Source of the DNA: a virus
Lineage: Duplodnaviria; Heunggongvirae; Uroviricota; Caudoviricetes
Reading direction: 5' to 3' (one strand)
Virus record (IMG/VR): IMGVR_UViG_3300025889_000082
Coordinates: 41,348 to 105,347 of that record
DNA: 64,000 nt
Shown: positions 9,976 to 56,872 of the stretch, one piece after another
Position numbering within the stretch: the stretch's first letter is position 1
Layout of the letters: each line of letters starts with the position of its first letter
Position numbers and translations under genes: made by a program
The notes under the pieces: model-generated
The model's input: the letters and a program-made list of their open reading frames with translations, nothing else
The model's database searches: none
What the model was told of the DNA's origin: nothing

Positions 9976-10193
9976 ACATAGGAAAGTAAATGATAAGGCT
10001 TTTCTCCAAACTTTGGTTTCTCAATGTATTGTCTATCAACACATTCATTTCTTAACTGTTCTGGTGTAAGAATCATAATCTTTCCTCTGTATTCCACCTC
10101 ATAGTTTTCATTCTTTTGAATGCACTCTTTTACGCTATGATCTATCAAATCAGCGTACTTCTTAGGGCTAAGCTTTAGTATTTTTCTTCTCAT
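9957..10193 (-). CDS. hypothetical protein
   Basis: 78-aa ORF. Confidence 0.35.
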   Translation of the reverse strand: MRRKILKLSPKKYADLIDHSVKECIQKNENYEVEYRGKIMILTPEQLRNECVDRQYIEKPKFGEKPYHLLSYVWKPIN

Positions 10194-10602
10194 TTCTTTT
10201 CTTTTCTAGTTTGGTTTTCATATCATGGCAGGCTTCGCATAACACTTGTAAGTTGTCTAACTCACAGAATAGTCTATCTACAAATCCAGGTAGGTCTGCA
10301 GCACAGTTTAAACTACCTGCAGGCTTTATGTGGTCTACGTTGATAAGCTTCTCTGGGAACCAGTCTCCACAACATGCACATTTGTATTCAAACTTCTGTC
10401 TTTTGCTTGGGCCCTTATAAGGTCTGCGTGCTTTCATTTTACATTCAGAGATAGGTTTCCACCATCTAGATTTCTGCCTCAAAGCACTTCTAATGAAGCT
10501 CCAAAAAGCAGACTCTGTCATAGTACCACTGTTCCTCACCCTAGGGGTCTTGGTTCTAGGTATTTTAGTCCTTCTCTTAGTTGCATTTTTCTTTACTGCC
10601 AT
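10168..10602 (-). CDS. HNH endonuclease
   Basis: CACCGDWFPEKLINVDHIKP…NLQVLCEACHDMK: CxxC…DH…N…CxxCH, the HNH/His-Me finger. Confidence 0.75.
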   Translation of the reverse strand: MAVKKNATKRRTKIPRTKTPRVRNSGTMTESAFWSFIRSALRQKSRWWKPISECKMKARRPYKGPSKRQKFEYKCACCGDWFPEKLINVDHIKPAGSLNCAADLPGFVDRLFCELDNLQVLCEACHDMKTKLEKKRNEKKNTKA

Positions 10603-31713: not shown

Positions 31714-31965
31714 ATGATAGTATTAGTATTAAAGGTGTTAGCTTGTATCGTTGGGTTGTTGACAGTAATAGTGTTAACAATGGGATTTATGTATTTTGAG
31801 GAATGGGAGATAGGAATAGAGTTATTGCCTAAGGGATATAATAACTTTGAGCTAGGTGTGTCTAACAGAAACTACAACCTAGAGGATGATGGACAGGAGC
31901 AGGAATTGAGGATTGGGCTCTTGTTGTTTACATTTATTGCTGTGTTTAGGAGATTTGACGCATAA
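31714..31965 (+). CDS. possible small membrane protein inside the switch region (doubtful)
   Basis: 83-aa ORF with two hydrophobic helices. Its ATG sits inside a TTGACA-N17-TAGTAT promoter-like element. Confidence 0.2.
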   Translation: MIVLVLKVLACIVGLLTVIVLTMGFMYFEEWEIGIELLPKGYNNFELGVSNRNYNLEDDGQEQELRIGLLLFTFIAVFRRFDA

Positions 31966-32000
31966 TATAGCATTAAAATTTTTAATAACTAAAATAGTTA

Positions 32001-32043: not shown

Positions 32044-32394
32044 ATGGAAACTAAATCAATTGTACAACGACTTAAAACATCTGTTAAGGACAGTGTTGCC
32101 ATGGCTGAGAAGTATTATAGAATACTGTCAGCTGTCAACAACCTTAAACTGACTAATAGGGAGGTGCAATTAATTGCATTTGCTGCTACAAAGGGAAACA
32201 TTTCATATGCTAACATACGTAAGGAATTCTGTGAGAAATATGGAAGCACTCCCCCAGCTATTAATAATATTGTAAGCAAGCTGAAGAAGATGGGTATATT
32301 TATAAAGGATGGGACAAAGGTGAAGGTGAACCCCATCATCCTCCTAAACTTCGAGAAGAATGTTGTCTTACAAATAACTCTTACACATGGATAA
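32044..32394 (+). CDS. winged-helix (MarR-like) transcriptional regulator; ATG at 32044, since the track start at 32029 is a TTG
   Basis: LTNREVQLIAFAATKGNISYANIRKEFCEKYGSTPPAINNIVSKLKKMGIF follows the MarR pattern (LT..E..VL..L…G.IS..ELA..LG.S.S.VS…KKLEEKGLI). Confidence 0.45.
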   Translation: METKSIVQRLKTSVKDSVAMAEKYYRILSAVNNLKLTNREVQLIAFAATKGNISYANIRKEFCEKYGSTPPAINNIVSKLKKMGIFIKDGTKVKVNPIILLNFEKNVVLQITLTHG

Positions 32395-32773
32395 GCCTAT
32401 AAGTATGTCTGTCAAGGACTTCCTTATTAGGACGCTGGCAGTGAAGATGATGGTGTCTGAGAAGACAATTGAGACAGTGGTGAACCACCAGTTTCAGTCA
32501 GCTAACGAGGCAATGGATGTGAACAACAGTTTAGAAATCTCTGGCTTTGGTAAGTTTTATTTCAATGAGAAGAAGGCTAAGAAAAGGCTTCAGGTGTTGG
32601 AAGAGAAGAGAAAAGCCATGCAGAAATATTCAACAGATGAGACGTTGTCTGAACAAAGACGAAAGACGTCCAAGGTGACACTAGAAAAAACAGAAGCTCT
32701 GATCAACTTATTAAAAAACAAGGTGACTTATGAAGATCAACTTCTCCCAGATTTACGAGGGATGGAAGAATAA
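32387..32773 (+). CDS. HU/IHF-family DNA-binding protein
   Basis: …MSVKDFLIRTLAV…KTIETVVNHQFQSANEAMDVNNSLEISGFGKFYFNEKKA… Helix-turn then a beta-arm with the GFGKF signature of Bacteroidetes HU-like proteins. Basic C-terminal extension. Confidence 0.65.
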   Translation: MDKPISMSVKDFLIRTLAVKMMVSEKTIETVVNHQFQSANEAMDVNNSLEISGFGKFYFNEKKAKKRLQVLEEKRKAMQKYSTDETLSEQRRKTSKVTLEKTEALINLLKNKVTYEDQLLPDLRGMEE

Positions 32774-33567: not shown

Positions 33568-33886
33568 AAAAACTACATACATCAACACAGAGCTTGAATG
33601 GGCTGAAGCACAGCTGAAGTCTTGGAAAGCTTATGTAGATGCAAATCCTCTTCATGAACTGAAGGACAGGATTGAATGGAAACCTACAGCTAAGGGTGGA
33701 ATGCTTCCTATGGTCATAGCAAGTATAGAAGCTCAGGGTAAGTTTGTCCAAGAGACAATGAAGAATTACCTAGCGTTAGTAGAAGTGGTTGATAAACTCA
33801 GAAGTGCAGAAGAAGCTAAGGTGGAAGTGAGAGGTAAGGGAGAACTATCTGGAGCAGCTGAAGACTGGCTGAAGAATAGAAAATAA
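33545..33886 (+). CDS. hypothetical protein (candidate small terminase by position)
   Basis: 113-aa coiled-coil-like ORF whose stop overlaps the TerL ATG (TAATG). Confidence 0.35.
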   Translation: MMKMATIKKTTYINTELEWAEAQLKSWKAYVDANPLHELKDRIEWKPTAKGGMLPMVIASIEAQGKFVQETMKNYLALVEVVDKLRSAEEAKVEVRGKGELSGAAEDWLKNRK

Positions 33887-35925
33887 TGGAACTACAAAAT
33901 ATAGATTATAAAGACTGGTTTATTAATCAGAAGCGTCTGCCTGACAAAGATTCAGCAGAATATAAACCTTTCTTTGATTTCCATAAACAACTTTGCTTGG
34001 ATGGTGCAATGATGAATGGGGTGTATATTAACCCTTTTTTATATTGGCATTTAAACATCTGGCACACAGAGGTAGATATTATAGATGATAAAGGACGTAT
34101 ATTTCAAAAATATGCTAATCCTCTACTTAGAGATAATGAATGGCTTGTGACAAATGAAATTGACAGAGCTAATCAAGAAAAGAAAGGCTTAGTCATTCTA
34201 GGTATTAGACGTTTTGCCAAGTCAGTTTTAGAAGCTTCCTATATTGCATGGGGAGCTACATTTGATGAAAACTCACAGAACATCATTGCTGGATTGAATG
34301 CAGCAGATATTAAACTTATTACAGATAAGATTGATAAAGGACTAAACTTTATCCCTGAATATTGGAGATGGCAGAGAGTGGAAGACAACTGGAAAAATCA
34401 GGTTACATTAGGTATCAAGACTAAGGCAGGGGAACGTATTCCCTTCTCTCAAATCTTGATACGTAACTTAGATGAAGGTAATAATGAAGAGGCTATTGCA
34501 GGTACTAAACCACGTAAATTAATTATAGATGAGATTGGTAAAGGTAATTTTCTCAGAGGGTTTCAGGCAGCTGTGCCAGGTTTTACAACTCCATATGGAT
34601 GGGGTTGCTCTCCTATTCTTACAGGTACTGGTGGTGATATGAAGAGATTCATGGATGCTAAATCCTTGATGTTTGATGTAAACAACTATAACTTTTTAGA
34701 TTATAATAATGAAAAGGATGAAAAGCGTATACATGGCTTGTTCATTCCTGCTAAGTATAGAATGGAGGCAAAAGTGGAATCAACACTTGGAGCTTTTCTA
34801 AATGAACCAAAAAACTCAGACTTACATAATATTAAGATGTTAGTAAGTGATGAAGCCAAAGCAAAAGAGATTACAGAAACTAACTTAGAAAGACTTAAGA
34901 AGGCTGGAGATAGAAGTATGTATTTAAAAGAAAAGATGTATTACCCACTTGAAGTGGATGATATATTCTTAAATGAGGATACAAATATATTTGATATAGA
35001 GGCTGCTAAGAGACAGAAATTCAGACTGTTACAACAAGAGAAAACAGGTGTTCCTGTTACATTGTTTCATGATGAAGATAAGATAGGTCATGAGTTTACA
35101 GACAAACAACCTATTACAAATTTTCCTCTTAAGCCTTCAGATTTAAAAGATGCACCTGTAGTAATATATGAATTTCCTATAGAAAATCCACCATATGGAT
35201 TGTATGTAGCTGGAGTTGACCCTTATAGACAGGGTAAATCAGCATATAGCTCCTCATTAGGGGCTGTCTACATTTACAAACGTATGCATGATTTGACAGG
35301 TGAGAAATATCAGGACATGTTCGTAGCATCCTATGTAGCAAGACCTGATAATAAAGATCACTGGAATGAGCAGGCTAGATTGTTAATTAAATATTACAAT
35401 GCTAGAACCTTATGTGAGAATGATGATATATCCTTTATTGAATATATGAAGAGTAAAGGAGATGCTCACCTTTTAGAAAGACAACCTGACTGGTTAAAAG
35501 AAATTGTTCCAAACACCACTGTAAAAAGAGAGTATGGTATACACAGATCTGCACAAAAGATAATTGACTATCTTCACACATGTCTTAAAAAATATATGGA
35601 AAGTCCTATCTTTGTAGAGAAGAATGAAGAAGGTCAGGTGATTAGAGAAGTGCTAGGAGTGAGTAAGATATTTGATCCTGTATTGTTAGAAGAAGTTATA
35701 CAATACAATGACCAAGATAACTTTGATAGAATCATTGCTGCTGAGCTTGCCATAGCACAAGCTTTAAAGATGGACCCTATTATGGGTAAGATAGGTGGCA
35801 CATCTGATGAAAGAGTGGCATCTATGTTTAAGAAAAAAAGAGGAAATGTTCTTTTCACTGAGGCTAGAGCAAATATGTTTGGACAATCTAAAAATAAATA
35901 TAAACGCAATAAATTGTTTTCATAA
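33886..35925 (+). CDS. terL: terminase large subunit
   Basis: 679 aa. Deviant Walker A LVILGIRRFAKSVL. Walker B KLIIDEIGKG. C-terminal RNase-H-like nuclease acidic motif YVAGVDPYRQG. Sits directly before the portal gene. Confidence 0.6.
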   Translation: MELQNIDYKDWFINQKRLPDKDSAEYKPFFDFHKQLCLDGAMMNGVYINPFLYWHLNIWHTEVDIIDDKGRIFQKYANPLLRDNEWLVTNEIDRANQEKKGLVILGIRRFAKSVLEASYIAWGATFDENSQNIIAGLNAADIKLITDKIDKGLNFIPEYWRWQRVEDNWKNQVTLGIKTKAGERIPFSQILIRNLDEGNNEEAIAGTKPRKLIIDEIGKGNFLRGFQAAVPGFTTPYGWGCSPILTGTGGDMKRFMDAKSLMFDVNNYNFLDYNNEKDEKRIHGLFIPAKYRMEAKVESTLGAFLNEPKNSDLHNIKMLVSDEAKAKEITETNLERLKKAGDRSMYLKEKMYYPLEVDDIFLNEDTNIFDIEAAKRQKFRLLQQEKTGVPVTLFHDEDKIGHEFTDKQPITNFPLKPSDLKDAPVVIYEFPIENPPYGLYVAGVDPYRQGKSAYSSSLGAVYIYKRMHDLTGEKYQDMFVASYVARPDNKDHWNEQARLLIKYYNARTLCENDDISFIEYMKSKGDAHLLERQPDWLKEIVPNTTVKREYGIHRSAQKIIDYLHTCLKKYMESPIFVEKNEEGQVIREVLGVSKIFDPVLLEEVIQYNDQDNFDRIIAAELAIAQALKMDPIMGKIGGTSDERVASMFKKKRGNVLFTEARANMFGQSKNKYKRNKLFS

Positions 35926-38516
35926 TGGCAATTATAAGATATACGAAAGACGCAACAATTAGGTATGCCTATTTGAACATCTTTCCTGATCAATTTAAAA
36001 CTGAGAAGGAAAAGATGGATGAGAGTTGGATTAAGAATACTATGGACTACTTTGCTAATAAGGCATATGCAGAGTATGTTAAAAGCAGAGATACATTTGT
36101 AAAGAACTATGACCTTGTTAAAGGTATTTTAAGAAGAGAAGATTTCTATGTTGAACCAGAGGTGAGAAGTTTCACAGATGTGCTTACAGCAGATTTGGAT
36201 CTTCCTGCTTATGTTAAGATGTATTCTATTATCACCACTCCTCTTAACGAGTTAGTTGGAGAGATAAGCAAACGACCAGATGCGTTTCGTGTCAAAGCAT
36301 TTGATGATGATAGTAAATCAGAAGAGTTAGAATTTAAAACTCAAATGTTAAATGACTATGTTGTTAACAAAGCTAAGCAGAAAATCATGGAAGATGCTGC
36401 TATGAGAGGTGAAGAGATTGATGAAGAAGAGATACAGAACATGAGCTTAGAACAAGTGAAAGATGAATTAGATAACTATACTTCTACAGCAGAAAAGTGG
36501 GCAAACCATATACTATCAGCTCAGAAGATTGAGTTTAATTTAAAAGAGAAAGGAGAAGATACATTTAGAGATTTATTGATTTCTGCTAGAGAGTTCTTCC
36601 ACATTTATGAGGATAACTCTAAACTTGGGTTTAATGTAGAGGTGGCTAATCCTAAGAACACTTGGTTCTTAACTACACCAGACAGAAAGTATATTTCAGA
36701 TCCTACAGGTAGAGCACAAGGAGCATATGCTGCTGGTATTGTACAGGTTATGGAATTATCTGAGATTATTGAATCTGTTCCTGACTTAACTAAAGAAGAG
36801 ATTGATCACTTACGTAGTTCATTGCAAGACTATGGTTTAATTAATGTACGTGAATCTAACTTAGGTAATCCTAATGCCATTCCTGGTAATGACTCTATTC
36901 AATATGATACATATGATCCATTGGTATTACAAACCAGAATGATCATTGAATCTGAAATGAAGGAAAATAATGATGGTTTAAAAGACTTCTTAGGATTAAC
37001 TTCTAATGTTAGTAGCTTTGGTTACAAGTATGTAGTGGTTAGATCTTACTGGATTTCTAAAAAGAAGATAGGTAAAGTTATTTACTTAGATGAGTTAGGA
37101 AATGAACAATCTCAGTTAGTGGATGAGAACTATAAGTCTGGAACTCTTCCTACACAACAATCATTAGAGTGGGGATGGATTAACCAATGGTACCAAGGTA
37201 TCAAGATTGGTCCAGATATCTATCATATTAAACCTTATAACTTATTACCTTATTGTCCTATCATTGGACAGGTGTTTGAGGTGAAGAATACAGAAGCTAA
37301 AAGCTTAGTGGATATGATGAAACCTTTCCAAGTAATTTATAATGTTTGTATGAATCAACTTTATAAGTTATTGGAGAAAGAGGTAGGTAAGGTACAATTG
37401 ATGTCTATTAGACACATTCCTATTCCTAAAGATGGTGATGCTCAAGATGCATTAGATATCTGGGAAATGGAAGCTAGAAATAGAGGTGTAGTATTTGTGG
37501 ATGACAGCCCAGAGAACTTAAAGAGTCCTTCTAGCTTCAACCAATACACCAGCTTAGACCTTACACGTACGCAGGAGATCCAAGCAAGATATACTCTAGC
37601 TCAACAGATTAAGAATGAATGTTGGGAGTTGATAGGTATGTCAAGACAAAGACTTGGTTCTGTGTCTGCTAGTGAATCTGCTACAGGAACTAATGCAGCA
37701 ATTACACAATCTTATGCTCAGACAGAACCATTGTTTGTAGCTCATGAATATGTAATGGGACAATTATATCAAGCAATTATTGATGCAGCTTTATATGTAG
37801 AAAGTGCTAAACCACAATCTACTATTTCATATGTTACTTCTGAGGGAGAGTCTGCATTTGTATCTGTAAATGGTACAGATTTACGTTTCAGAGATTTAAA
37901 AGTATTCTTGACTAATAGACCTGAAGATAAACAAATGTTTAATGAGATTAGAGGATTATCTCAAGCTGTTATTCAAAATGGTGGTAGCTTGCATGATGTA
38001 ATTGAATTGTATAGCACTAACTCTATGAGACAAATGAAGAAGGTGTTCAAGACACTTAAGGATAGACAAGAGGCTATGCAGAATGCTCAAATGCAACAAA
38101 AGCAACAAGAATTAGAACAACAACAACAACAAGTTCAGGCTCAAATTGAAGCTGCTCAACAACAAGCTCAAGAAAAAATGGCTAATGAAAACTACCAAGC
38201 AGAGCTTGATAGAATTAATAAGAAAGAGATTGCTCTTATTGCAGCTGAAGCTAAAGGTGGTCCATTGAGTGACATTGATCAATCAGGAGCTCCTGATGTG
38301 TTAGAGATTGATAAATTAGCAATGGAACAAGCTAATGCTCAAAAGGAATATCAGACTAAGATGATGGACATGCAAAGTAAGAACCAATTAGCAGCTGAGA
38401 AGTTACAAATAGAAAGAGAGAAACTAAAGATAGCTAGAGAGAACCAAGCAAATGACTTGGCCATAGCTAAGGAAAATGCCAAGGGAAGAGCCAAAGCAAA
38501 ACCAAAAACTAAATAA
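35925..38516 (+). CDS. portal protein with Q-rich coiled-coil C-terminal extension
   Basis: 863 aa immediately after terL (ATG overlaps the stop). C-terminus is …QNAQMQQKQQELEQQQQQVQAQIEAAQQQAQEK… Assigned by size and position. Confidence 0.5.
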   Translation: MAIIRYTKDATIRYAYLNIFPDQFKTEKEKMDESWIKNTMDYFANKAYAEYVKSRDTFVKNYDLVKGILRREDFYVEPEVRSFTDVLTADLDLPAYVKMYSIITTPLNELVGEISKRPDAFRVKAFDDDSKSEELEFKTQMLNDYVVNKAKQKIMEDAAMRGEEIDEEEIQNMSLEQVKDELDNYTSTAEKWANHILSAQKIEFNLKEKGEDTFRDLLISAREFFHIYEDNSKLGFNVEVANPKNTWFLTTPDRKYISDPTGRAQGAYAAGIVQVMELSEIIESVPDLTKEEIDHLRSSLQDYGLINVRESNLGNPNAIPGNDSIQYDTYDPLVLQTRMIIESEMKENNDGLKDFLGLTSNVSSFGYKYVVVRSYWISKKKIGKVIYLDELGNEQSQLVDENYKSGTLPTQQSLEWGWINQWYQGIKIGPDIYHIKPYNLLPYCPIIGQVFEVKNTEAKSLVDMMKPFQVIYNVCMNQLYKLLEKEVGKVQLMSIRHIPIPKDGDAQDALDIWEMEARNRGVVFVDDSPENLKSPSSFNQYTSLDLTRTQEIQARYTLAQQIKNECWELIGMSRQRLGSVSASESATGTNAAITQSYAQTEPLFVAHEYVMGQLYQAIIDAALYVESAKPQSTISYVTSEGESAFVSVNGTDLRFRDLKVFLTNRPEDKQMFNEIRGLSQAVIQNGGSLHDVIELYSTNSMRQMKKVFKTLKDRQEAMQNAQMQQKQQELEQQQQQVQAQIEAAQQQAQEKMANENYQAELDRINKKEIALIAAEAKGGPLSDIDQSGAPDVLEIDKLAMEQANAQKEYQTKMMDMQSKNQLAAEKLQIEREKLKIARENQANDLAIAKENAKGRAKAKPKTK

Positions 38517-38518
38517 TA

Positions 38519-39049
38519 ATGTTTGATAAACTCATTGAGATAATAACTCACTGGTGGTTCCAAATAACCCCAGTGATTATTATCAGAGATTATGAGGAAG
38601 CTGTGCTTCTCAGATTTGGAAAATTTCATGCAGTTCTTAAACCAGGAATGCATGTTAAAATTCCTTTACTAGATGAGGTGATAGATCAACATGTTGTTAT
38701 CACCACTCTAAGTTTAGATGCTCAGTCTTTATATACTATAGACAAGCAGAACATAGTTGTCAAGGGAGTTATCAAATATAAGATATCAGATGTTAAAACA
38801 TTTTTACTTGAGGTGTATGACGCACAGGATGCCCTTGCTGACATGTCTCAAAGCATCATAAAAAATGTTATTATGTCAATGACCCTAGAAGAATGCACTG
38901 ACACAGAATTAGACAACACTTTGACCAAGAAGGTGAGAGTGGAGGCACGTAAGTGGGGTGTTGAAGTTCAACAAGTTACACTTACAGATTTAGCTCCAAT
39001 AAGGAGTTTTAGATTTATAAATGACTCTTTTCTTAACAAATTAGATTAG
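38519..39049 (+). CDS. SPFH/band-7 (stomatin/prohibitin/HflKC) domain protein
   Basis: ITPVIIIRDYEEAVLLRFGKFHAVLKPGMHVKIPLLDEVIDQHVV matches the SPFH core (V.QGE.AVVERFGKY…L.PGLHF.IPFID.V…). Confidence 0.65.
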   Translation: MFDKLIEIITHWWFQITPVIIIRDYEEAVLLRFGKFHAVLKPGMHVKIPLLDEVIDQHVVITTLSLDAQSLYTIDKQNIVVKGVIKYKISDVKTFLLEVYDAQDALADMSQSIIKNVIMSMTLEECTDTELDNTLTKKVRVEARKWGVEVQQVTLTDLAPIRSFRFINDSFLNKLD

Positions 39050-39107
39050 AGTGAAAAAAGTTAATGCTATATTATACTGAATAATAGTCTGTATAAAGAC
39101 ATGTCTC

Positions 39108-39138
39108 TTTGCTATTAATTTAACTTAATATACTTTTA
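39108..39138 (+). promoter_or_regulatory. Bacteroidetes-type promoter (TTTG-N19-TAcTTTTa) upstream of the scaffold gene, overlapping palindrome AGACATGTCT
   Basis: TTTG at 39108-11, a 19-nt spacer, then TACTTTTA at 39131-38. The 10-bp perfect palindrome AGACATGTCT lies just upstream (~39097-39106). Confidence 0.4.
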
Positions 39139-39170
39139 CATTCACAAAACCAATTAAAACTCAACTACAT

Positions 39171-40457
39171 ATGGCTGAAAACCTAGATACACCCCAATTG
39201 GGTAATTTTAGTATTCAAGATACTATGGATATGGGTATGGGTAGTCAAGAGCTATTAGATGGCTTATTTGCACCTGAAACTGCTACAGGAAATCCTGATG
39301 ACATTAAAGACATCAAAGATGAACCTGCTCCAGCACCTGCCCCCAAAAAGACTACTTCTAAGACACCAGCTCCTGCTCCAGAAGAAGGAGAGGAAAAGAA
39401 AGATGAGAATCCTGTAAAGGACATTCAAAGCTTCTTATATGGTGAAGATGAAACTGAAGATGAGGAAGATGATCAAGATGATAAACCAGCACCTCCAGCT
39501 AAGAAAGCTGCACAAAGTACTGATAATCAAGAAGATAGTAATGAGGAAGATGATGAAGAAGGTGATGAAGCTCCTACGAGCCAGTTCACTGCTTTATCAA
39601 ATGACCTTTTCAAATTAGGTGTATTTTCTAAAGATGAAGATGAAGAAGATGTAACTATAGATACTCCAGAAGCTTTCTTGGAAAGATTCCAAGCAGAGAA
39701 GAAGAAAGGAGCTATTGAAATAGTAGACAACTTTATTGGTCAGTTTGGTGAAGATTACCAACAAGCATTTGATGCAATCTTTGTTAAAGGTGTTAATCCT
39801 AAGGATTATTTCAGCTCATATAATCAAATCCAATCTTTCTCTGAGATGGATTTAACTCAAGAGAACAACCAAGTAGCTGTTATCAGACAGGCTTTGACTG
39901 ATCAAGGCTTTGAATCAGAAGACATTGATACTGAGGTTGAAAGATTGAAAAACTATGGTGACTTAGAGAACGTTGCTACTAAACACCATAAAGTATTAGT
40001 AAAGAAAGAAGCTGCAAAGCTTCAACAACTAGAGCAAGACAAACAAGCTCAATTACAACAGCAACAAGCTATCAAACAGCAGTATCTTCAGAACGTAAAC
40101 CAAGTGTTACAGGAGAAGCTCAAAGCAAAAGAATTTGATGGCATACCAATTAACCCCAAATTAGCTGGTGAACTACAAGATTTCCTAGTAACAGATAAGT
40201 ACAAAACTGCTAGTGGTGAAACACTAACAGACTTTGATCGTACCATTCTGGAGCTGAAGCGTCCTGAGAATCATGCAACAAAAGTAAAGCTTGCGTTGCT
40301 TATGAAGATAATGGAGAAAGATCCTACATTATCTACTATTCAAAAGACAGGTATCACCAAGAAGTCCAATGAGCTATTTGGTGAGGTTGCCAGACAAGCC
40401 CAGAAGAGTTCAGTGAAATCTAAACAAACAGCTAAACCCACTTCTTGGTTTCAATAA
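39171..40457 (+). CDS. scaffolding protein (acidic, coiled-coil)
   Basis: 428 aa. Acidic stretches (EDETEDEEDDQDD, EEDDEEGDE). Q-rich helix LQQLEQDKQAQLQQQQAIKQQYLQN. Directly upstream of the capsid gene. Confidence 0.5.
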   Translation: MAENLDTPQLGNFSIQDTMDMGMGSQELLDGLFAPETATGNPDDIKDIKDEPAPAPAPKKTTSKTPAPAPEEGEEKKDENPVKDIQSFLYGEDETEDEEDDQDDKPAPPAKKAAQSTDNQEDSNEEDDEEGDEAPTSQFTALSNDLFKLGVFSKDEDEEDVTIDTPEAFLERFQAEKKKGAIEIVDNFIGQFGEDYQQAFDAIFVKGVNPKDYFSSYNQIQSFSEMDLTQENNQVAVIRQALTDQGFESEDIDTEVERLKNYGDLENVATKHHKVLVKKEAAKLQQLEQDKQAQLQQQQAIKQQYLQNVNQVLQEKLKAKEFDGIPINPKLAGELQDFLVTDKYKTASGETLTDFDRTILELKRPENHATKVKLALLMKIMEKDPTLSTIQKTGITKKSNELFGEVARQAQKSSVKSKQTAKPTSWFQ

Positions 40458-40491: not shown

Positions 40492-42045
40492 ATGGCAATT
40501 CAAACAATCCCAGGTTTAACTGGTTTTACCTATGCTAGAGTAGCTTCAATGGACAAGCGTGCAGTAGGTAAATTGACTGATGCGAACCATTTAGAGAGCT
40601 TCCACTCAACTGAGCCTGCTGATTATGATAAAAAGATCATCAGCTTGTATACTCAGAGTTCTCTTTATAGTAATGATTTCTTAGACATGATCAACAAGTC
40701 TACTCCTTACTATATTGATAACAATAGTGATGCTTGGAAATGGCAAGTACAAGTACCTTACAAGTTCCCTAAAATCATTGACGTTCCTACCAGCACTTTG
40801 GAATTAAACAAGCCTGGTATTGATGGTCAAGAGTTTCAATTAATCATTGACACTAATGAGTTTAGCAAGAACGCTATCATCTCTGTAGGTACACGTCAAT
40901 ATGGTCCACGTTTTTACGTAGTAAAAGATCCAGTTCCTTGGAACGTTGGATACTTGTACACATTCACTTTAGTAAGTGACAACCCAACTGTAGATTTCGT
41001 ATCACCTGTATTCTTACAAGTAGGTATTGAATTAGAATTGGTTGATGCTGCAATTGGTGAATTTGACCAAGACTTATTAGGTCTTCCTCGTTTAGGTGAG
41101 CAAATCACAATGTTTGAATCTTTAGGTTCTGCATATGGTTATGAGCACAAAATCACAGAGTGGGCTGATGACAAGATGATGAGAGACAGCAAAGGTAATC
41201 CATTGGATATCTTGGTATACGCTCCTCAAAGACGTAACCAATTACCTTTAACTCGTAATGATGTTAAATGGGAACCATTCATTGAATTCTGGATGCGTAA
41301 GTCTATGTTAGAATTAAAAGTTAAGCGTATGATCTGGGCTCGTCCTGGAACTGTGAAGACTAATGGTTCTAAGCAAGAATTAAAGCGTACTTCTGCTGGT
41401 GTTTACCACAGAATGCGTAACAATGGTAACTTAGTACAGTACAACAGAGGTGAGTTCACAGCTAACTTAATTCGTTCTGTATTTGGTGACTTATTCTACA
41501 GACGTGTGGATGTTAAAGACAGACGTGTTAAAATGTACACTAATGAAGCTGGCTTTGACGTATTCCAACAAGCTTTAAAAACAGATGCTTTAAATTCTGG
41601 TTTAACTTTCATGGCTGATTCTGGTAACAGATATATGCAAGGAGAAGGACAACACATCACTTACAACTTTGCTTTCGATGCAATGGTAACTCGTGAGACT
41701 GGTCGTGTTGAATTGATCCACTTGAAAGAGTTAGATTTACCTCAAACTAACTTAGAATTTGGACAGAATAAAAAATCTACTCCTGTATTCATGGTATTTG
41801 ATGTATCTCCTATGAGTGATGGTTCTATGGTGAACAACATTCGTGAAGTACGTATGAAGGGTGCACCTTCTATGACTTGGGGTTACATTGATGGTACTCG
41901 TCACCACTTAGGCTTTGCTAAGTCTCAAGGTATGAGTTCTGCAAACAAATTCCCTGGATATGAGATCTGGATGAAAGATCGTTGTGATGTATTTATTGAA
42001 GATTTATCTCGTACAGTATTGATTGAAGAGATTCCTCAATTCTAA
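40492..42045 (+). CDS. major capsid protein
   Basis: 517 aa after the scaffold gene. Codon usage suggests high expression (Arg almost exclusively cgt/aga, ggt/gct preferred). Followed by a cluster of GC hairpins. Confidence 0.55.
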   Translation: MAIQTIPGLTGFTYARVASMDKRAVGKLTDANHLESFHSTEPADYDKKIISLYTQSSLYSNDFLDMINKSTPYYIDNNSDAWKWQVQVPYKFPKIIDVPTSTLELNKPGIDGQEFQLIIDTNEFSKNAIISVGTRQYGPRFYVVKDPVPWNVGYLYTFTLVSDNPTVDFVSPVFLQVGIELELVDAAIGEFDQDLLGLPRLGEQITMFESLGSAYGYEHKITEWADDKMMRDSKGNPLDILVYAPQRRNQLPLTRNDVKWEPFIEFWMRKSMLELKVKRMIWARPGTVKTNGSKQELKRTSAGVYHRMRNNGNLVQYNRGEFTANLIRSVFGDLFYRRVDVKDRRVKMYTNEAGFDVFQQALKTDALNSGLTFMADSGNRYMQGEGQHITYNFAFDAMVTRETGRVELIHLKELDLPQTNLEFGQNKKSTPVFMVFDVSPMSDGSMVNNIREVRMKGAPSMTWGYIDGTRHHLGFAKSQGMSSANKFPGYEIWMKDRCDVFIEDLSRTVLIEEIPQF

Positions 42046-42055: not shown

Positions 42056-42180
42056 TCTAAGAATAGTATTCTTAGACTGACACCACTGGTGTTTCGCAAA
42101 AAACTCAGAAGACATTCCCCCCACCTCCTAGTGGGGGAGTCTTCTAACACAGATGGATGGGTCTAGGCTCCATGTCTGAC
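42056..42180 (+). other. cluster of GC-rich hairpins 3' of the capsid gene (terminator or RNA-stability element)
   Basis: Hairpin tctaagaata-g-tattcttaga (42056-76). Hairpin acaccactggtgt (42080-92). Hairpin gaagacattcccccac-ctccta-gtgggggagtcttc (42108-44). An imperfect fourth hairpin follows. No U-tract. Confidence 0.45.
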
Positions 42181-47283: not shown

Positions 47284-50200
47284 ATGGCTTGTTTACCAGG
47301 AATGCCTTGCTATGGTGCTCAGCAAAAAGAGTGCTGTCCTGAGGTTAATTCAAATTGCGTAGATTATTCTGGACCTAATTTACCTTGTTCAGGTGTGCAA
47401 ACACATGACTGCCTTACCACTGCTATTGAGAAAATAGATGATAAATTGTGTAAGGTGGGGAATGGTACGTCTGGTACATCAGGATCATCAGGTCAAACAT
47501 ATGGAACAGCAGGTACCTCTGGTTCTTCAGGAACTAGTGGAAATGATGGTTCTTCTGGTTCTGCAGGTACTAGTGGTCAAACTGGTACATCAGGGACATC
47601 AGGTAGTTCTGGTAGCTCTGGTAGAACTTATGGTACATCAGGTACCTCTGGAACTTCTGGCTCATCAGGTAGTGCTGGCACTAGTGGTTCTTCTGGATCT
47701 AGTGGATCTAGTGGTTCTTCTGGATCATCAGGTTCATCAGGCACTTCTGCTTCTAGTGGTACTAGTGGATCTTCTGGGTCATCTGGTACTTCTGCAACTT
47801 CAGGATCCAGTGGTTCATCAGGATCAAGTGGATCTTCAGGATCTGCAGGAACTAGTGGTCAAGAAGGTACTTCAGGTTCAAGTGGTTCTTCTGGTATTTC
47901 TGGTGATAGATACTTTACAACATCAGCTGATTCTTTTACATTAGGTAATTCTGGTACATTAACTGTAGGCACAAACCTAGCATATACACCAGGACAATCC
48001 ATTATCATAGCACATGACGCTACCAATTATCAAGTGTCAACAGTATTATCATATAATGCTGGTACAGGTGCATTACAATTTTCTTCTCCTTCCTCAGTAG
48101 TAGGTTCTGGCACATACACTGCTTGGACCATCAACTTACAGGGGGCTGCAGGTGGTGATGGTTCTAGTGGAACTTCAGGTTCTTCTGGAACGTCAGGATC
48201 TAGTGGCTCTTCTGGTAGTAGTGGAACTAATGGTAGTTCAGGAACTAGTGGAACTAATGGTTCAAGTGGAACTAATGGTTCTTCTGGTACTAGTGCCACA
48301 TCTGGTTCTTCTGGTACTGCTGGAACAAGTGCTACATCAGGAAGTTCTGGTTCTTCTGGCACATCTGCCACTGCAGGAACTAGTGGATCTTCTGGCACAA
48401 GTGGTACCAATGGGTCTAGTGGTACAGCAGGATCATCAGGTACATCTGCTTCTTCTGGTACATCAGCAACGTCTGGGTCTAGTGGGTCTTCTGGTACTAG
48501 TGGGTCTTCTGGCTCAAGTGGTACTTCTGCTACTAGTGGTTCTTCTGGTACAGCAGGCACTAGTGGGTCTAGTGGTACAGTTGGCACTAGTGGAACATCA
48601 GGTTCTTCTGGTACTAATGGTTCAAGTGGAACTTCTGGTACTAGTGGTTCATCAGGTACAAGTGCTAGTTCTGGTTCCTCAGGTACAACTGGTACATCAG
48701 GTAGTTCAGGATCTTCAGGTACTAGTGGAACAAGTGGTACAAATGGTAGTTCAGGTACAAATGGATCCAGTGGTACAAATGGTTCTTCTGGTTTATCAGG
48801 AGATAGATATTTAACATCTTCCACAACAACTCTTACAATTGTATCTTCTGGAACAATTACATTTACAGTTGAAACAGGATTAGCATATAGTACATTACAA
48901 ACAGTTATTGTAGTACATGAAAACACCCATTACATGGAAGGAACAGTATTATCATATGATAGTGCTACTGGAGTAATGAGTGTTGATGTTACAAATGGTG
49001 TTGGATTAGGACTAACAGAATCTATGTGGACAGTGAACCTGTTAGGTGCTGCTGGTGGAGATGGCTCTTCAGGAACATCTGGTTCAGCTGGTACTAGTGG
49101 TACGTCTGGATCTTCTGGTTCAACAGGAACTTCTGGAACAACAGGAACTTCTGGCTCTTCTGGAACAAGTGGTTCTTCTGGAACTAGTGCAACTTCTGGT
49201 AGTTCTGGTACGTCTGGAACTAAGGGTACGTCTGGAACTTCAGGCATCAATGGTACCTCTGGTACAAGTGCAACTAGTGGTTCAAGTGGTTCTTCTGGTA
49301 CTTCTGGAACATCAGGTTCTTCTGGCTCATCTGGTACAGCTGGTTCTTCTGGTACATCAGGTACTAAGGGAACATCTGGTACCTCTGCATCATCTGGAAC
49401 GAGTGGTTCATCTGGCACTACAGGAACCTCTGGTACATCAGGCTCAACAGGTACTTCAGGAACAGCAGGATCTAGTGGTACAAGTGCAAGTAGTGGATCA
49501 TCTGGATCAAGTGGAACAACTGGTACTTCAGGATCAAGTGGTATCAATGGTACTTCAGGAACTGCTGGTACATCAGGTTCAACAGGAACATCAGGAACAT
49601 CAGCTACTTCTGGTTCAAGTGGTACAACAGGAACAAGTGGTTCTTCTGGAACAACAGGAACTAGTGGAAGTTCTGGTACTGCTGGATTAAGTGGAGATAG
49701 ATATCAAACAACTTCAACAACTCCTTTCACTCTTGGTAATAATGGTACAATAACAATTGGAACAGGACTTGCTTATACAGCAGCTCAGGTTATTCTTATT
49801 GTATATGATTTAACTCACTATCAAGAGTCTGTAATCATATCTTATAATGCTGGTAGTGGATCTTTGCAATTTGATACTCCTACAAGTACAGTTGGTTCAG
49901 GTACATTTAGTTCTTGGACTGTAAACTTATCTGGTGCTAGTGGTGGAGATGGATCTTCTGGTACATCAGGATCTGCTGGTACTAGTGGAGCAAAAGGTAC
50001 AAGTGGTACTGCAGGCACATCTGGATCTAGTGGTACATCTGCATCTTCAGGATCATCTGGCACTAGTGGAACGTCAGGTTCAAGTGGTACATCAGGTACC
50101 TCTGGTAGTAGTGGTACTTCTGGTACAAAGGGAACTTCTGGTACTTCAGGTGCTAATGGAACCTCTGGTACAGCAGGTACGTCTGGTTCTTCTGGAACAA

Positions 50201-51909
50201 CTGGTACTTCAGGTTCAGCTGGTACTAGTGGAACTAATGGAACAAATGGCTCTAGTGGTACAAGTGGTTTACAAGGTACATCAGGAACAAGTGGAGCAAA
50301 TGGGTCATCAGGCACATCAGGTACTAATGGTTCTAGTGGAACAACAGGTACATCTGGTAGCTCAGGAACAAGTGGAGTTAGTGGTTCCTCTGGTACGTCT
50401 GGTACAAAAGGTACAAGTGGTACTAGTGGTACGAGTGGTTCTAGTGGTACTTCTGGTACATCTGGTTCTAGTGGAACTACTGGTACTAGTGGTAGTAGTG
50501 GAACAAGTGGTACTAGTGGCAGTAGTGGTACTTCTGGTACATCTGGTACAAGTGGTAGTAGTGGAACAAGTGGTACTAGAGGTACATCAGGATCTAGTGG
50601 TACTAGTGGAGCTGGAACTATTAGTGGTACATTGAACTACATAGCTAAGTTCACTCCTAATAGTACCACTGTAGGAAATAGTCAGATTTTTGATAATGGT
50701 ACTAATATTGGCTTTGGTACCAATTCTCCAAGTTACTTTGCTGATTTTCAAGTTAACAATACTTCTTTTGTATCAAGATTTAGAAACTTAAATACAACAA
50801 CTGATAGTGCTGGTTTATTGATTCAGGCAGGTGTTAATTCTGGAAATGAAATATTGCTTTTAAAGAATGCAGCAGGAACAGCAAGAATGGGTGTCTATGC
50901 AAATGGATATGTAGGTCTTGGTACTGAAACTCCTACTGTTAGATTTAATATGGAAAGTTCAGGATCTTCATATTCTGATCCTAGTACAAATGATTGTTCA
51001 ACAATAGCATTATATAACTCAAATAGTTCATCTACCACAGCACATTCAATTCTTTCATTAAGAACAAATCTTGGAACTGGTGGTAATCCTTTTGTATCTT
51101 GGGATATACGTGGTGTTACAGGTTATTCAATGGGTATTGACAATGCTGACTCAGATAAACTTAAAATTGCTGCAACATGGTCTAATGTTGCTAGCTCAAC
51201 AATTCTTACATTTACAACATCTGGTGCTGCAACTTTTGCATCCACTGTAACAGCTTCTTCTTTGATTAAATCAGGTGGTACTAGTTCTCAATTCTTGAAA
51301 GCTGATGGTAGTGTAGATTCAAATACATATTTAACAACATCTTCTGCAGCTTCTACATATGTTGCTAAGAGTGGAGATACAATGACTGGAACATTAAACT
51401 TTTCTAATAACTTAGGAACTTGTTTATATGGTTCTATGGCAGATAATGATCAGTGGAGAATATATGCTGGTAATACAGGAAGCAATGCTGGATATTTAGA
51501 AATAGCTACAGCAGATGATGCTAGTGAACCAATTTATGTAAGACAATATAGTGGTGTGTTTGGTTCTTTGGTAAGAACATTTACATTGTTAGATGGTAGT
51601 GGTAACACTACAATGCCAGGAACTGTAACAGCTACAGCATTCTATGAGTCTTCAGATGCTACATTGAAAAAACTAATTACAGATGATTTCACTGTAGAAG
51701 GAATTGAAAACATTGCATCAAAGCTTTATATAAAAGATGGTAGACAAGAAGTGGGATATTTTGCACAAGATGTTCTACCTTTGTTACCAAATGCTGTTGC
51801 TAAGAATGATGCAGGCATATTAAGTTTATCATATAAGGAAGTGCATACAGCTAAGATAGCTAGACTTGAAAAGAGAGTTAAAGAACTAGAATCTAAATTA
51901 GGAATCTAA
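47284..51909 (+). CDS. giant tail fiber: Cys-rich N-anchor, four proline-free Gly-X-Y (X,Y=Ser/Thr) repeat blocks, three ~90-aa knob domains, distal domain and C-terminal S74 intramolecular-chaperone domain
   Basis: 1541 aa. About 245 G-[ST]-[ST] triplets (…GTSGSSGTSGNDGSSGSAGTSG…). The blocks are separated by three homologous GDRY(F/L/Q)T(T/S)S… knob domains. C-terminus is …YESSDATLKKLITDDFTVEGIENIASKLYIKDGRQEVGYFAQDV…, which matches the endosialidase/T5-LTF autocleaving chaperone (S-DxRLKK…). Confidence 0.7.
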   Translation: MACLPGMPCYGAQQKECCPEVNSNCVDYSGPNLPCSGVQTHDCLTTAIEKIDDKLCKVGNGTSGTSGSSGQTYGTAGTSGSSGTSGNDGSSGSAGTSGQTGTSGTSGSSGSSGRTYGTSGTSGTSGSSGSAGTSGSSGSSGSSGSSGSSGSSGTSASSGTSGSSGSSGTSATSGSSGSSGSSGSSGSAGTSGQEGTSGSSGSSGISGDRYFTTSADSFTLGNSGTLTVGTNLAYTPGQSIIIAHDATNYQVSTVLSYNAGTGALQFSSPSSVVGSGTYTAWTINLQGAAGGDGSSGTSGSSGTSGSSGSSGSSGTNGSSGTSGTNGSSGTNGSSGTSATSGSSGTAGTSATSGSSGSSGTSATAGTSGSSGTSGTNGSSGTAGSSGTSASSGTSATSGSSGSSGTSGSSGSSGTSATSGSSGTAGTSGSSGTVGTSGTSGSSGTNGSSGTSGTSGSSGTSASSGSSGTTGTSGSSGSSGTSGTSGTNGSSGTNGSSGTNGSSGLSGDRYLTSSTTTLTIVSSGTITFTVETGLAYSTLQTVIVVHENTHYMEGTVLSYDSATGVMSVDVTNGVGLGLTESMWTVNLLGAAGGDGSSGTSGSAGTSGTSGSSGSTGTSGTTGTSGSSGTSGSSGTSATSGSSGTSGTKGTSGTSGINGTSGTSATSGSSGSSGTSGTSGSSGSSGTAGSSGTSGTKGTSGTSASSGTSGSSGTTGTSGTSGSTGTSGTAGSSGTSASSGSSGSSGTTGTSGSSGINGTSGTAGTSGSTGTSGTSATSGSSGTTGTSGSSGTTGTSGSSGTAGLSGDRYQTTSTTPFTLGNNGTITIGTGLAYTAAQVILIVYDLTHYQESVIISYNAGSGSLQFDTPTSTVGSGTFSSWTVNLSGASGGDGSSGTSGSAGTSGAKGTSGTAGTSGSSGTSASSGSSGTSGTSGSSGTSGTSGSSGTSGTKGTSGTSGANGTSGTAGTSGSSGTTGTSGSAGTSGTNGTNGSSGTSGLQGTSGTSGANGSSGTSGTNGSSGTTGTSGSSGTSGVSGSSGTSGTKGTSGTSGTSGSSGTSGTSGSSGTTGTSGSSGTSGTSGSSGTSGTSGTSGSSGTSGTRGTSGSSGTSGAGTISGTLNYIAKFTPNSTTVGNSQIFDNGTNIGFGTNSPSYFADFQVNNTSFVSRFRNLNTTTDSAGLLIQAGVNSGNEILLLKNAAGTARMGVYANGYVGLGTETPTVRFNMESSGSSYSDPSTNDCSTIALYNSNSSSTTAHSILSLRTNLGTGGNPFVSWDIRGVTGYSMGIDNADSDKLKIAATWSNVASSTILTFTTSGAATFASTVTASSLIKSGGTSSQFLKADGSVDSNTYLTTSSAASTYVAKSGDTMTGTLNFSNNLGTCLYGSMADNDQWRIYAGNTGSNAGYLEIATADDASEPIYVRQYSGVFGSLVRTFTLLDGSGNTTMPGTVTATAFYESSDATLKKLITDDFTVEGIENIASKLYIKDGRQEVGYFAQDVLPLLPNAVAKNDAGILSLSYKEVHTAKIARLEKRVKELESKLGI
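47440..50620 (+). repeat. intragenic near-perfect 9/18-nt tandem repeats (ggt-ac/tc-t/agt) encoding the Gly-Ser/Thr triplets
   Basis: A 3-nt periodic, low-complexity region. It produces long spurious ORFs in all other frames on both strands. Confidence 0.8.
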
Positions 51910-54884: not shown

Positions 54885-56135
54885 ATGTCTGAAAACCAAC
54901 CCCTTTTACAGCAGCTTCAGCAGATGTTACACTGGAAAAAATCAAAGAAATACTATGCTGAAAAGCTAGGAGTCACAGAAACTGAGATTGATGAATTGTT
55001 AGAAGAGATAAGAAAACAAGAAAGGGTTGTAGAAGATGCTGAGGTTGGGAACTACATATCTGATTTAGAGGACGTGGTTGTTAAGTTCATGGAGGATGTG
55101 AGCAAAGGAACAGGTGAGGTCATAGCAAATGTATCTCAAGAAATCAAGAGCTTAGAGGAACTTATAGAGAAATGTAAGATAGACACAGAGAAATGGGAAG
55201 TAACTAAATATGTACAAAACTTCTGGGGAAATGGAGAGAATCCCCACTGGCAGGTGAAAGCCTGGTTAGGAAAGAAGTCTACAGAGCAGGTGTTTCAAGA
55301 TAGCTTTGTAGACTTTTTAAGTTCATATGAGCCTGTGTGTCAAGCAATTGCAACTCCTAAGATAGAAGTGAATAAAGAGTTTGCAATGTTAATTATCAAC
55401 AAACAAGACTCCCATTTGAACAAGTATGATATTGATGGAGACAACAATATTACAAATAGATTAGCTCAGATTATGTACAAGGTTGAGGTGATTGCTTCTC
55501 AAGCAGAGATGACTAACAACCTAGAAACAATAACCTACATCATTGGTTCTGACGAGTTCAATAGTGAATATACCAACGCAACAACAAAAGGTACTCCTCA
55601 GCAAAATACACATACATACCATACTTCCTTTAAATATATCTGTGACCATGAAATTTTAATGATCTCAATGTTATTATCACATGCTCAACAGGTAGAGGTT
55701 ATATATGTTGCTGGGAACCATGATGAGTTTGTAGGATGGCACATGGTAAATTGGTTGAAGATGTTCTTCAGAGATGAACCAAGAGTAATTATAGATGATT
55801 CTCCTAAGTATAGAAAGTACGTAAGTTATGGTGACTCTGCAATGATGTTTAACCATGGAGACGCTATCAAGCCTGCTAAGCTAGCTGGTATATTCCCAAT
55901 GGAGTTTAAAGATAGTTGGTCTGGTCACAATAACTACTATATCTTCACAGGAGATAAACACCATGAAGTGAGCTTGGACTTCAATGGTATCAAGTTCTAT
56001 CAAATTCCAGCTTTCTCTAAAGCTAAGAGTTTATGGGATGACAAGATGGGACATGTATGTTCTAAAGCAGAAGTTACAGGGTTCCTCATTGAGTTTGATA
56101 ATGGAATGACAAATATATTCAAACAATATTTATAA
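54885..56135 (+). CDS. calcineurin-like metallophosphoesterase-domain protein
   Basis: C-terminal half carries VIYVAGNHDEF (GNH[DE]), FNHGD and FTGDKHHE, which resemble MPP metal-binding motifs. N-terminal coiled coil. Confidence 0.4.
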   Translation: MSENQPLLQQLQQMLHWKKSKKYYAEKLGVTETEIDELLEEIRKQERVVEDAEVGNYISDLEDVVVKFMEDVSKGTGEVIANVSQEIKSLEELIEKCKIDTEKWEVTKYVQNFWGNGENPHWQVKAWLGKKSTEQVFQDSFVDFLSSYEPVCQAIATPKIEVNKEFAMLIINKQDSHLNKYDIDGDNNITNRLAQIMYKVEVIASQAEMTNNLETITYIIGSDEFNSEYTNATTKGTPQQNTHTYHTSFKYICDHEILMISMLLSHAQQVEVIYVAGNHDEFVGWHMVNWLKMFFRDEPRVIIDDSPKYRKYVSYGDSAMMFNHGDAIKPAKLAGIFPMEFKDSWSGHNNYYIFTGDKHHEVSLDFNGIKFYQIPAFSKAKSLWDDKMGHVCSKAEVTGFLIEFDNGMTNIFKQYL

Positions 56136-56872
56136 TGGCTACATTAAGAAAAATGGTCTCAGATGTGCGTGCAACACATAAACTGTTATCAACAGACAAC
56201 TTGATAACAGATAGAGTTGTTGCGTCTGAGATTAAGAATAACACAATTTTACTGATAAAGAGAGAAACAAATCTTAGAAAGCTTTGGGCTACTGACACTG
56301 TATTCCAAACGCTTCCTTGTTTAGAGATGATAGAGGTACCTATTTCTGATTGCTGTGAGTATGTTGATCCTTGCACTGTTGCTAGGAGTAAATACAAACT
56401 TCCACGTATCAGTGAGGGTAACTATCAATATCTAATCCAAGGTGTTTACTCTATCAACGCAATGGGTGGTAAGGGTAAAAGATTTAAAGAAATCACAATT
56501 AACAGATACTTAAATTTATTAAAACTGCCCATCATTAAGAATGAACAATACTATTGGATAGCTAATGGTGGATATTTATATGTTAATAACCCTAACTTAA
56601 AATCAGTTAGAATTTCTGCTTTCTTTGAAGAAGATGTTCCAAATGACATATTATATCCTCAAGAGTGTGCATGTGGTGCTACTCCTCCTGTGAGTGATGA
56701 AGACTATTGCATGAATCCTTTAGATAAAGAATTTGGATGTCCTGGTTACTTGGAAAAGCAAGTGTTAGACCTAACATCTCAAAAACTTTTAAGTACTTAT
56801 TTCAACATTAAAACAGATCAAACCTTTGAAGGTATAGATGGGCAAGCACCAAATGCTAAACCAACTAATTAA
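56135..56872 (+). CDS. hypothetical structural protein
   Basis: 245 aa; ATG overlaps the upstream stop. Confidence 0.4.
   Translation: MATLRKMVSDVRATHKLLSTDNLITDRVVASEIKNNTILLIKRETNLRKLWATDTVFQTLPCLEMIEVPISDCCEYVDPCTVARSKYKLPRISEGNYQYLIQGVYSINAMGGKGKRFKEITINRYLNLLKLPIIKNEQYYWIANGGYLYVNNPNLKSVRISAFFEEDVPNDILYPQECACGATPPVSDEDYCMNPLDKEFGCPGYLEKQVLDLTSQKLLSTYFNIKTDQTFEGIDGQAPNAKPTN

Follow-up and report, generated by a model that had tools for sequence, protein, structure and literature searches.

The gene considered here lies at positions 38519..39049 (plus strand) of a 64,000-nucleotide (nt) window from the virus record IMGVR_UViG_3300025889_000082 (Caudoviricetes; record positions 41,348 to 105,347), the window being the whole stretch of DNA that was analysed and the frame for all coordinates given below unless another contig is named. 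It encodes a protein of 176 amino acids (aa) plus stop, hereafter mini-SPFH, and its ATG lies 2 nt past the stop codon of the portal gene. No start codon lies between this ATG and the preceding in-frame stop, and the protein N-terminus, which reads MFDKLIEIITHWWFQITPVIIIRDYEEAVLLRFGKFHAVLKPGMHVKIPLLDEV, opens with an M1-F2-D3 triplet that is invariant among homologues. A first, sequence-only reading of the window had called the product an SPFH/Band-7 (stomatin-prohibitin) domain protein on the basis of the peptide RFGKFHAVLKPGMHVKIPLLDEV, which is present in the product of this open reading frame (ORF), and had set a profile match and a predicted fold as refutation tests; both bore the call out. 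Pfam Band_7 (PF01145) matches with E=3.5e-25 and 89.5 bits versus a gathering cut-off of 23.6, protein residues 21-160 aligning to profile positions 2-147 of 176, and a homologue-built profile run against PDB sequences retrieves human stomatin (4.6e-12), E. coli QmcA (1.4e-10), HflK (3.9e-09) and HflC (1.7e-08).

The predicted structure gives the same answer. An AlphaFold (AF2) model computed from a 28-sequence alignment spanning 40-92% identity has a predicted local distance difference test score (pLDDT) of 83.9 and a predicted template-modelling score (pTM) of 0.68, while a shallow alignment (20 homologues, 85-94% identical to the window protein) yielded a pLDDT of 45.8 and an unusable model. 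Searching the PDB with the former using Foldseek returned 60 matches at E<=1e-3, with stomatin as the best (E=1.1e-13, template-modelling score TMq 0.77, probability 1.00); all 50 matches listed are SPFH-family chains, the last two being major vault protein, the top 20 are stomatin, HflK/C, QmcA, erlin or prohibitin chains (each with probability 1.00), and flotillin is also among the matches. That the gene is real, and that its domain assignment lies far past chance, is near-certain. An hmmsearch of all six frames of the window with the family profile found no further SPFH gene.

In the model the chain folds into a helix (residues 2-16), strands (19-89, SPFH1), helices (92-146, SPFH2), a last strand (148-160) and a tail (161-176). 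The SPFH1+SPFH2 core (residues 19-160; 38573..38998, plus strand) aligns to residues ~45-192 of human stomatin. It is preceded by an amphipathic helix (residues 2-16; 38522..38566, plus strand) that sits at the position of the transmembrane segment of HflC and stomatin and that conforms, across 67 diverse family members, to the pattern M-[FL]-[DE]-[KR]-L-I-[DE]-[LF]-[LI]-x-x-[FIW]-W-[ED]-x-[LI]-x-P. Over these 67 members the helix has a median hydrophobic moment of 0.55 and a median mean hydrophobicity of 0.32, and its polar face is acidic, positions 3, 7 and 14 being mostly Asp or Glu; the window protein has D3 and E7, but Phe at position 14. The Kyte-Doolittle 19-residue maximum of the window protein is 1.23, the usual transmembrane threshold being 1.6, a value that only 12 of the 67 members attain, and no signal peptide, transmembrane segment or lipobox was found in mini-SPFH, whose sole Cys is residue 126.

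At the other end, the core is followed by a short tail (residues 161-176; 38999..39046, plus strand) with the motif [RK]-[ST]-[ILF]-R-[LI], in which R165 is near-invariant (64 of 67 members) although the model is of low confidence here (pLDDT ~46-52 in the last two 10-residue blocks). Judged from the stomatin alignment, this RSxRL motif may be the counterpart of the initial turns of coiled-coil helix CC1, but the chain goes no further. The coiled-coil wall (CC1/CC2) and the cap are absent, as the chain ends 16 residues past the last SPFH2 strand: the best-matching solved SPFH chains are mostly 250-420 aa long, mini-SPFH aligns to their first ~190 residues only, and the missing ~100-250 residues form the cage wall and cap in the nearest solved relatives. 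It is near-certain that mini-SPFH is a complete SPFH1+SPFH2 core without a clear membrane anchor, coiled coil or cap. The normal SPFH roles named in the sequence-only reading, membrane microdomains and FtsH regulation, are therefore not simply transferable, since canonical functions are not to be assumed for a truncated variant of this kind.

Comparison with known SPFH proteins brings out what was kept and what was lost. Stomatin (288 aa) and QmcA (305 aa), the best matches in both sequence and structure (Foldseek TMq 0.75-0.78, ~22% identity over 166 aligned columns), have the SPFH1+SPFH2 core and the motifs RFGK, PG and Q..T.D in common with the phage protein, but they have a membrane hairpin or transmembrane segment, in whose place the phage protein shows an acidic amphipathic helix, as well as long CC1/CC2 and a C-terminal cap, which the phage protein lacks. 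With these parts they form cages of 16 to 26 subunits, and the NfeD protein YbbJ is the partner of QmcA. HflK and HflC are likewise matched in fold and by the TIGR01933 (hflK, E=3.7e-21) and TIGR01932 (hflC, E=2.2e-14) models, yet the scores fall below the equivalog cut-offs (75.7 versus 159.4 bits for hflK, 53.0 versus 134.4 for hflC), the match covers only the first ~150 of 261-420 residues, and the SPFH domains of HflK/HflC are periplasmic, behind a true transmembrane segment. The same mini architecture is seen in A0A6J7WFI0 of an uncultured Caudovirales phage (173 aa; Foldseek E=1.4e-17, TM 0.85/0.87, 27% identity), and UOF81165.1 of phage MW202733, whose gene adjoins that of the large terminase subunit (TerL), is 27% identical to the window protein. 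The match to the SPFH 'lipoprotein' of Vi01-like phages (PHROG 200) is confined to the domain (residues 21-160 versus positions 103-258 of 379, E=1.6e-08), and no lipobox is present in the window protein. Unlike mini-SPFH, the majority of the other viral SPFH proteins in BFVD are full length (258-500 aa). Neither A0A6J7WFI0, UOF81165.1 and the PHROG 200 proteins nor the SPFH ORFs of the T4-like phages 44RR, Aeh1 and RB43 are functionally characterised. A link between SPFH and a protease through the 'peptidase' encoded 3' of the portal gene in Crassvirales phage cr10_1 was considered and dropped, as Pfam gives only a weak aRib match for that protein.

To delimit the family, an exhaustive HMMER search was run over 1.84 billion cluster representatives (clusters defined at 50% identity), which returned 4473 at E<=1e-3, 747 at E<=1e-10 and 45 at E<=1e-30. 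Because the best 150 representatives share their length (nearly all 168-190 aa) and align end to end (residues 1-170), mini-SPFH constitutes a distinct ~175-aa family and not a fragment. The window protein belongs to it by its length within 168-190 aa and by the N-terminal MF[DE]xLI[DE]xL..W....P helix and C-terminal RSxRL of the 67-sequence alignment. Wherever the surroundings were examined, members sit in phage-like contexts (metagenomic phages). The SPFH proteins known so far build membrane-anchored cages and control proteases and channels; here, a very large phage family is cut to the bare core.

Searching collections and literature, we found neither a functional study nor a cultured representative of the mini-SPFH family, and the GenBank set contained no close mini-SPFH homologue in cultured phages and no close phage at the DNA level. 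SPFH ORFs as such have been recorded in T4-like phages since 2006 (PMC1524935), in Vi01-like phages (PMC10892097), in phiKZ-related phages (PMC6034870), in haloviruses (PMC7230728) and in one gut Crassvirales genus (bioRxiv 10.64898/2026.08.21.746148). The gain in annotation is modest, since the domain is already named automatically in JGI ('regulator of protease activity HflC'), UniProt ('HflK protein', A0A6J7WFI0) and GenBank ('prohibitin-like protein', MW202733). The JGI name is misleading, being a domain-level transfer and no evidence of function.

Identical or near-identical genes occur on 105-117 kb metagenomic contigs from aquatic samples (e.g. JGI 3300006802). An 81%-identical SPFH gene is carried by a 59-kb contig (JBBAJX010000014.1) binned with a freshwater Chitinophagaceae metagenome-assembled genome (Sediminibacterium sp.), a weak hint at a Bacteroidota host that may otherwise be a binning artefact. 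Matches to the human-faecal 'Bacteriophage sp.' records MT835563 and MT836173 were set aside as uninformative for this clade, the one that was examined (MT835563) being a high-GC contig with a 301-aa full-length SPFH gene.

The genes around mini-SPFH place the window among the crAss-like phages. The TerL gene (33886..35925, plus strand; PHROG 6681 'terminase large subunit', E=2e-86) opens a run of three closely packed cistrons, with a stop codon that overlaps by 1 nt the start of the 863-aa portal gene (35925..38516, plus strand; Pfam P22_portal 7.9e-16, PHROG 6547 'portal protein' 1.6e-100), and the latter matches bear out the sequence-only placement of the SPFH gene after the portal gene. 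The portal is 24-30% identical to those of Crassvirales (24-29%, over aligned stretches) and of Leptolyngbya phage Lbo-JY46 (30%, the best cultured match). Further downstream lie the major capsid protein of crassvirus type (40492..42045, plus strand; Pfam Crass_capsid 1e-26, PHROG 11589 6e-33), tail ring 2 (56135-56872; CrAss_Ring_2 6e-17), tail ring 1 (57355-58326; CrAss_Ring_1 1.1e-06) and the muzzle protein (58253-62935; crAss_MUZ 6.9e-34). By its capsid, ring 1, ring 2, muzzle and portal matches, all at the level of sequence, the window derives from a crAss-like phage.

Between mini-SPFH and the capsid gene, a putative scaffolding protein of 428 aa is encoded at 39171..40457 (plus strand), and here the sequence-only reading was sustained in part: the position directly 5' of the capsid gene and the composition speak for a scaffold (pI 4.45, an acidic N-terminal half with 36% Asp+Glu in residues 61-160, and a Q-rich helical C-terminal half), whereas no family does so, the sole match of the 428-aa protein being PHROG 16294 'unknown function'. 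The scaffold label is thus plausible. The counterparts of this protein in Lbo-JY46 and in one distant relative of the window (L103) are 26% identical to each other, and neither matches the window protein by BLASTP.

Mini-SPFH is separated from the scaffold-like gene by a conserved AT-rich non-coding spacer of 121 nt (39050..39170), which keeps a length of 117-121 nt in 83 of the 84 relatives and contains two blocks that are at least 95% conserved over 45 distinct sequences. An extended -10-like motif, TGCTATATT, lies within 39061-39076 and is included in the spacer sequence TTAATGCTATATTATA, and a second copy of TTAATGCTATATTAT occurs with one mismatch at 31961-31976 (minus strand), in the intergenic region from which the leftward and rightward gene blocks diverge. 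Save for this near-exact copy, counts of the spacer motifs elsewhere in the window are at chance level, and a sigma-70 promoter scan, which showed no enrichment (27 matches versus 34 expected), was not used. TTAATGCTATATTATA and its minus-strand copy may represent a common promoter element, and the spacer is probably a promoter or regulatory element for the scaffold-capsid unit. The SPFH gene appears to close a TerL-portal-SPFH unit that is set apart from the scaffold and capsid genes, and a promoter in the spacer, if real, would put the level of the SPFH protein below theirs.

The sequence-only reading had mini-SPFH 'inserted between' portal and scaffold genes. The position holds, but a recent insertion is contradicted by several observations. 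The GC content of the gene (0.350) is in line with that of the window (0.354), and none of the more than 80 close relatives lacks the gene. In all 80 IMG/VR loci compared (78-100% identity) the genes run in the order IHF-like, TerL, portal, SPFH, scaffold and capsid within each contig's reach, and in 84 related loci the portal stop and SPFH start are 2 nt apart (65/84) or overlap by 1 nt (17/84). The portal-SPFH slot is also retained in relatives with lower SPFH identity, i.e. 63% in L098, 55% in L097 and 49-52% in L103 and L109, the last two with a Crass_capsid gene downstream, so that the slot is held even where portal identity is ~29%. Mini-SPFH is therefore an old resident and not a recent insert. 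Purifying selection on it also matches that on TerL and portal in strength, the ratio of non-synonymous to synonymous polymorphism (pN/pS) in comparison with 12 relatives being 0.135 for SPFH, 0.160 for TerL, 0.174 for portal and 0.207 for the scaffold-like gene.

The window and L103 are 28.5% identical in TerL, 29.5% in portal and 20.9% in capsid but 48.8% in SPFH. We did not adopt the explanation that an SPFH gene more conserved than the structural genes had been transferred horizontally, because against the closer relative L098 the order is reversed (portal 81%, SPFH 63%). As far as these identities go, the pattern is that of a small domain reaching saturation near 45-50% identity, with no clear evidence of transfer.

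These distant relatives differ from the window in several neighbouring features. Between portal and SPFH, L097 has an extra 87-aa ORF (4649-4912 of its contig) and L103 and L109 each have an 86-aa ORF (7736-7996 and 5738-5998, respectively), which is absent from the window. Its product has a hydrophobic N-terminal segment and then a conserved Cys (ICKPG) and may, from these sequence features, be a small lipoprotein or secreted protein; the resemblance of the L109 ORF to the L097/L103 ORF was judged by eye only. The TerL of L103 (1243-4476) and L109 (1-2026) exceeds 1000 aa and contains domains of the intein or homing-endonuclease kind (Intein_splicing, LAGLIDADG_3, Hom_end), and L109 has an Endonuclease_7 gene between TerL and portal.

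The gene is not universal among crass-like phages. No SPFH homologue was found in Lbo-JY46, the nearest cultured relative, or in GenBank Crassvirales, and in Lbo-JY46 the portal gene is followed by a scaffold-like gene and the capsid gene with nothing between portal and scaffold-like gene. The corresponding Lbo-JY46 segment (PP438436.1, 106488-120683) has the same order as the window with TerL, portal and capsid 40%, 30% and 26% identical to it, its portal being nearer to that of the L103 lineage (38%) than to that of the window. By these matches Lbo-JY46 is a crass-like phage on a cyanobacterial host, in which TerL, portal and capsid are all annotated 'hypothetical protein'.

Elsewhere the family occupies other slots. 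In another crass-like lineage, represented by L108 (a 68.9-kb contig) and L110, a 50-51%-identical mini-SPFH (6001-6534 in both) is flanked by CrAss_Ring_1 and by a homologue of the window muzzle (24-27% identity), and start and stop codons overlap on both sides of it. Crass-like mini-SPFH genes are thus always in the structural block beside portal-vertex components, but not always beside the portal. In other phages a relative is located 3' of TerL (the 45-kb podovirus MW202733), 5' of an SPP1 gp7-like head-morphogenesis gene (L090), between exonuclease and DNA polymerase genes (L089, for members at 30-41% identity), in a Metallophos/YqaJ/integrase/SSB region (L100) or among runs of small early-like ORFs (L102, L111 and L092). 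There is no partner gene common to these contexts, the flanking small ORFs being homologous only within the pairs L092/L102 and L097/L103. One contig, L092, encodes a mini-SPFH (174 aa, 7001-7522) and, 1.5 kb away, a full-length 413-aa Band_7 protein (9043-10284, Pfam 5.3e-09), and the two may form a heteromeric pair.

To our knowledge, every characterised SPFH protein acts at a membrane, where it regulates a membrane protease, channel or microdomain. This biology is one of three reasons why we tentatively favour, while granting that the case could well go against it, a late accessory factor that acts on host membrane or SPFH-protease systems and is not a capsid building block. The second is that the family occurs in unrelated modules: the replication and early contexts, together with the two different slots in crass-like phages, argue for a generic function independent of the capsid. 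The third is that the gene is dispensable for a crass-type head, as Lbo-JY46 and GenBank Crassvirales do without it. The lipoprotein-like ORF beside mini-SPFH in L097, L103 and L109 hints in addition that the portal-SPFH slot holds envelope-directed functions.

We infer the localisation, partners and effect of the protein as follows. Mini-SPFH would be made late, at a level nearer to that of the portal than to that of the capsid protein, and would stay cytoplasmic, either soluble or peripherally bound to the membrane. There it would engage cytoplasm-facing SPFH proteins, membrane proteases or membrane machinery of the host, possibly as a cap-less decoy or poison subunit that is unable to close a cage and could dock on or cap host SPFH-protease assemblies or membrane sites, and host membrane quality control would be kept from interfering in the assembly and pre-lysis phase. 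Were host SPFH-protease systems the target, mini-SPFH would be a new phage takeover factor and a natural tool for studying SPFH cage assembly.

Several observations weigh against such a host-directed factor. A membrane anchor is not demonstrable, and helices that attach to anionic bacterial membranes do not typically have an acidic polar face like that of the N-terminal helix here. HflK/C have their SPFH domains in the periplasm, beyond the reach of a cytoplasmic protein, which limits the possible targets to host SPFH systems that face the cytoplasm. No NfeD, FtsH or other protease partner was recognised among the 36 window proteins scanned, ~30 minus-strand ORFs of at least 100 aa (12-31.5 kb) lying outside the scan. 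A typical host-directed moron would look different: this gene forms part of structural operons with overlapping start and stop codons, lacks its own promoter and does not differ from its neighbours in GC content. It is also kept beside portal-vertex genes at 21-30% TerL, portal and capsid identity, as expected of a morphogenetic gene.

The latter points lead to a second reading, which we rate as nearly as likely as the first though in itself somewhat unlikely, that mini-SPFH is a low-copy portal-vertex assembly factor, oligomerising like other SPFH domains. It would help the 12-fold assemblies of portal, ring and muzzle to nucleate, or act as their chaperone, either in solution or at the inner membrane, and might or might not stay in the virion. 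T4 gp40 is a membrane-associated helper of portal gp20 initiation, and it offers an analogy in function only, as a small accessory protein at portal initiation that is not needed in the finished particle and with which no homology is expected. In favour of a role at the vertex, mini-SPFH is translationally coupled to the portal gene (2-nt gap or 1-nt overlap in 82 of the 84 loci) and integrated into the operon without its own promoter; the portal slot is held across crass-like lineages at ~29% portal identity, and in the third crass-like lineage, with the gene between ring 1 and muzzle, its neighbours are again portal-vertex components. Unrelated phages moreover place it 3' of TerL (MW202733) or 5' of the SPP1 gp7-like gene (L090), its pN/pS is as low as those of TerL and portal, and the acidic amphipathic helix and conserved tail resemble protein-protein interfaces more than membrane anchors. 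Yet Lbo-JY46 and cultured Crassvirales assemble crass-type heads and tails without the gene, family members reside in replication or early regions of other phages, and no single partner gene accompanies them all. Action at the portal vertex would put the SPFH fold to a new use.

A specific form of such action, which we think unlikely, is that a solubilised SPFH domain forms a 12- or 24-fold ring docked on the dodecameric portal or on the tail-ring assembly, where it would nucleate the vertex or stay as an extra collar. The ring would have a parallel in the SPFH-like shoulder domain of major vault protein, and mini-SPFH would then be the first of the SPFH proteins to take part in virion assembly independently of a membrane.

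It is improbable, in our estimate, that mini-SPFH is a packaged virion protein, whether a minor capsid protein, a neck protein or internal cargo, which the particle would deliver or display. The gene does lie inside the virion-structural block in three crass-like lineages, and SPFH proteins have been detected at low abundance by mass spectrometry of phages, namely Sajous1 gp200 (3 retrievals; PMC10892097) and RisingSun gp131 (PMC6034870), but these detections are near noise, at least one of the preparations was crude (PMC10892097, PMC6034870), and the proteins concerned are longer and of lipoprotein type. Mini-SPFH also has no homology to solved crassvirus virion components, the Pfam CrAss_* families matching neighbouring genes only, and in other phages the family is found in non-structural contexts.

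Equally doubtful is a membrane protein for superinfection exclusion, abortive-infection-type interference or lysis timing, for although SPFH proteins organise membranes, the lipoprotein-like small ORF adjoins SPFH in L097, L103 and L109 and some relatives lie in early or temperate-phage regions, mini-SPFH matches no defence-protein model in PADLOC-DB (E<=0.01), shows no signal peptide, transmembrane segment or lipobox, adjoins neither a holin nor an endolysin gene and sits in a late operon that fits poorly with exclusion, no integrase being present among the window proteins scanned (lysogeny itself was not examined).

Several further features of the window lie away from the mini-SPFH gene. The rightward structural block is headed by a gene for an HU/IHF-like DNA-binding protein (32387-32773, plus strand), like in other crass-like phages, and a leftward block (1356-7206, minus strand) encodes a GT2 glycosyltransferase, a dUTPase, RecA (E=4e-81) and a ribonucleotide-reductase-like protein. 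In the 190-nt gap 3' of the major capsid gene, a strong GC-rich hairpin (42117-42138; 9 bp, 6 G-C pairs) is likely the terminator of the scaffold-capsid unit. The tail-gene block contains a gene (47284-51909, plus strand) for a protein of 1541 aa in which collagen triple-helix repeats make up ten stretches (Pfam Collagen, E=1.3e-93) and which, going by these repeats, may form a collagen-like fibre.

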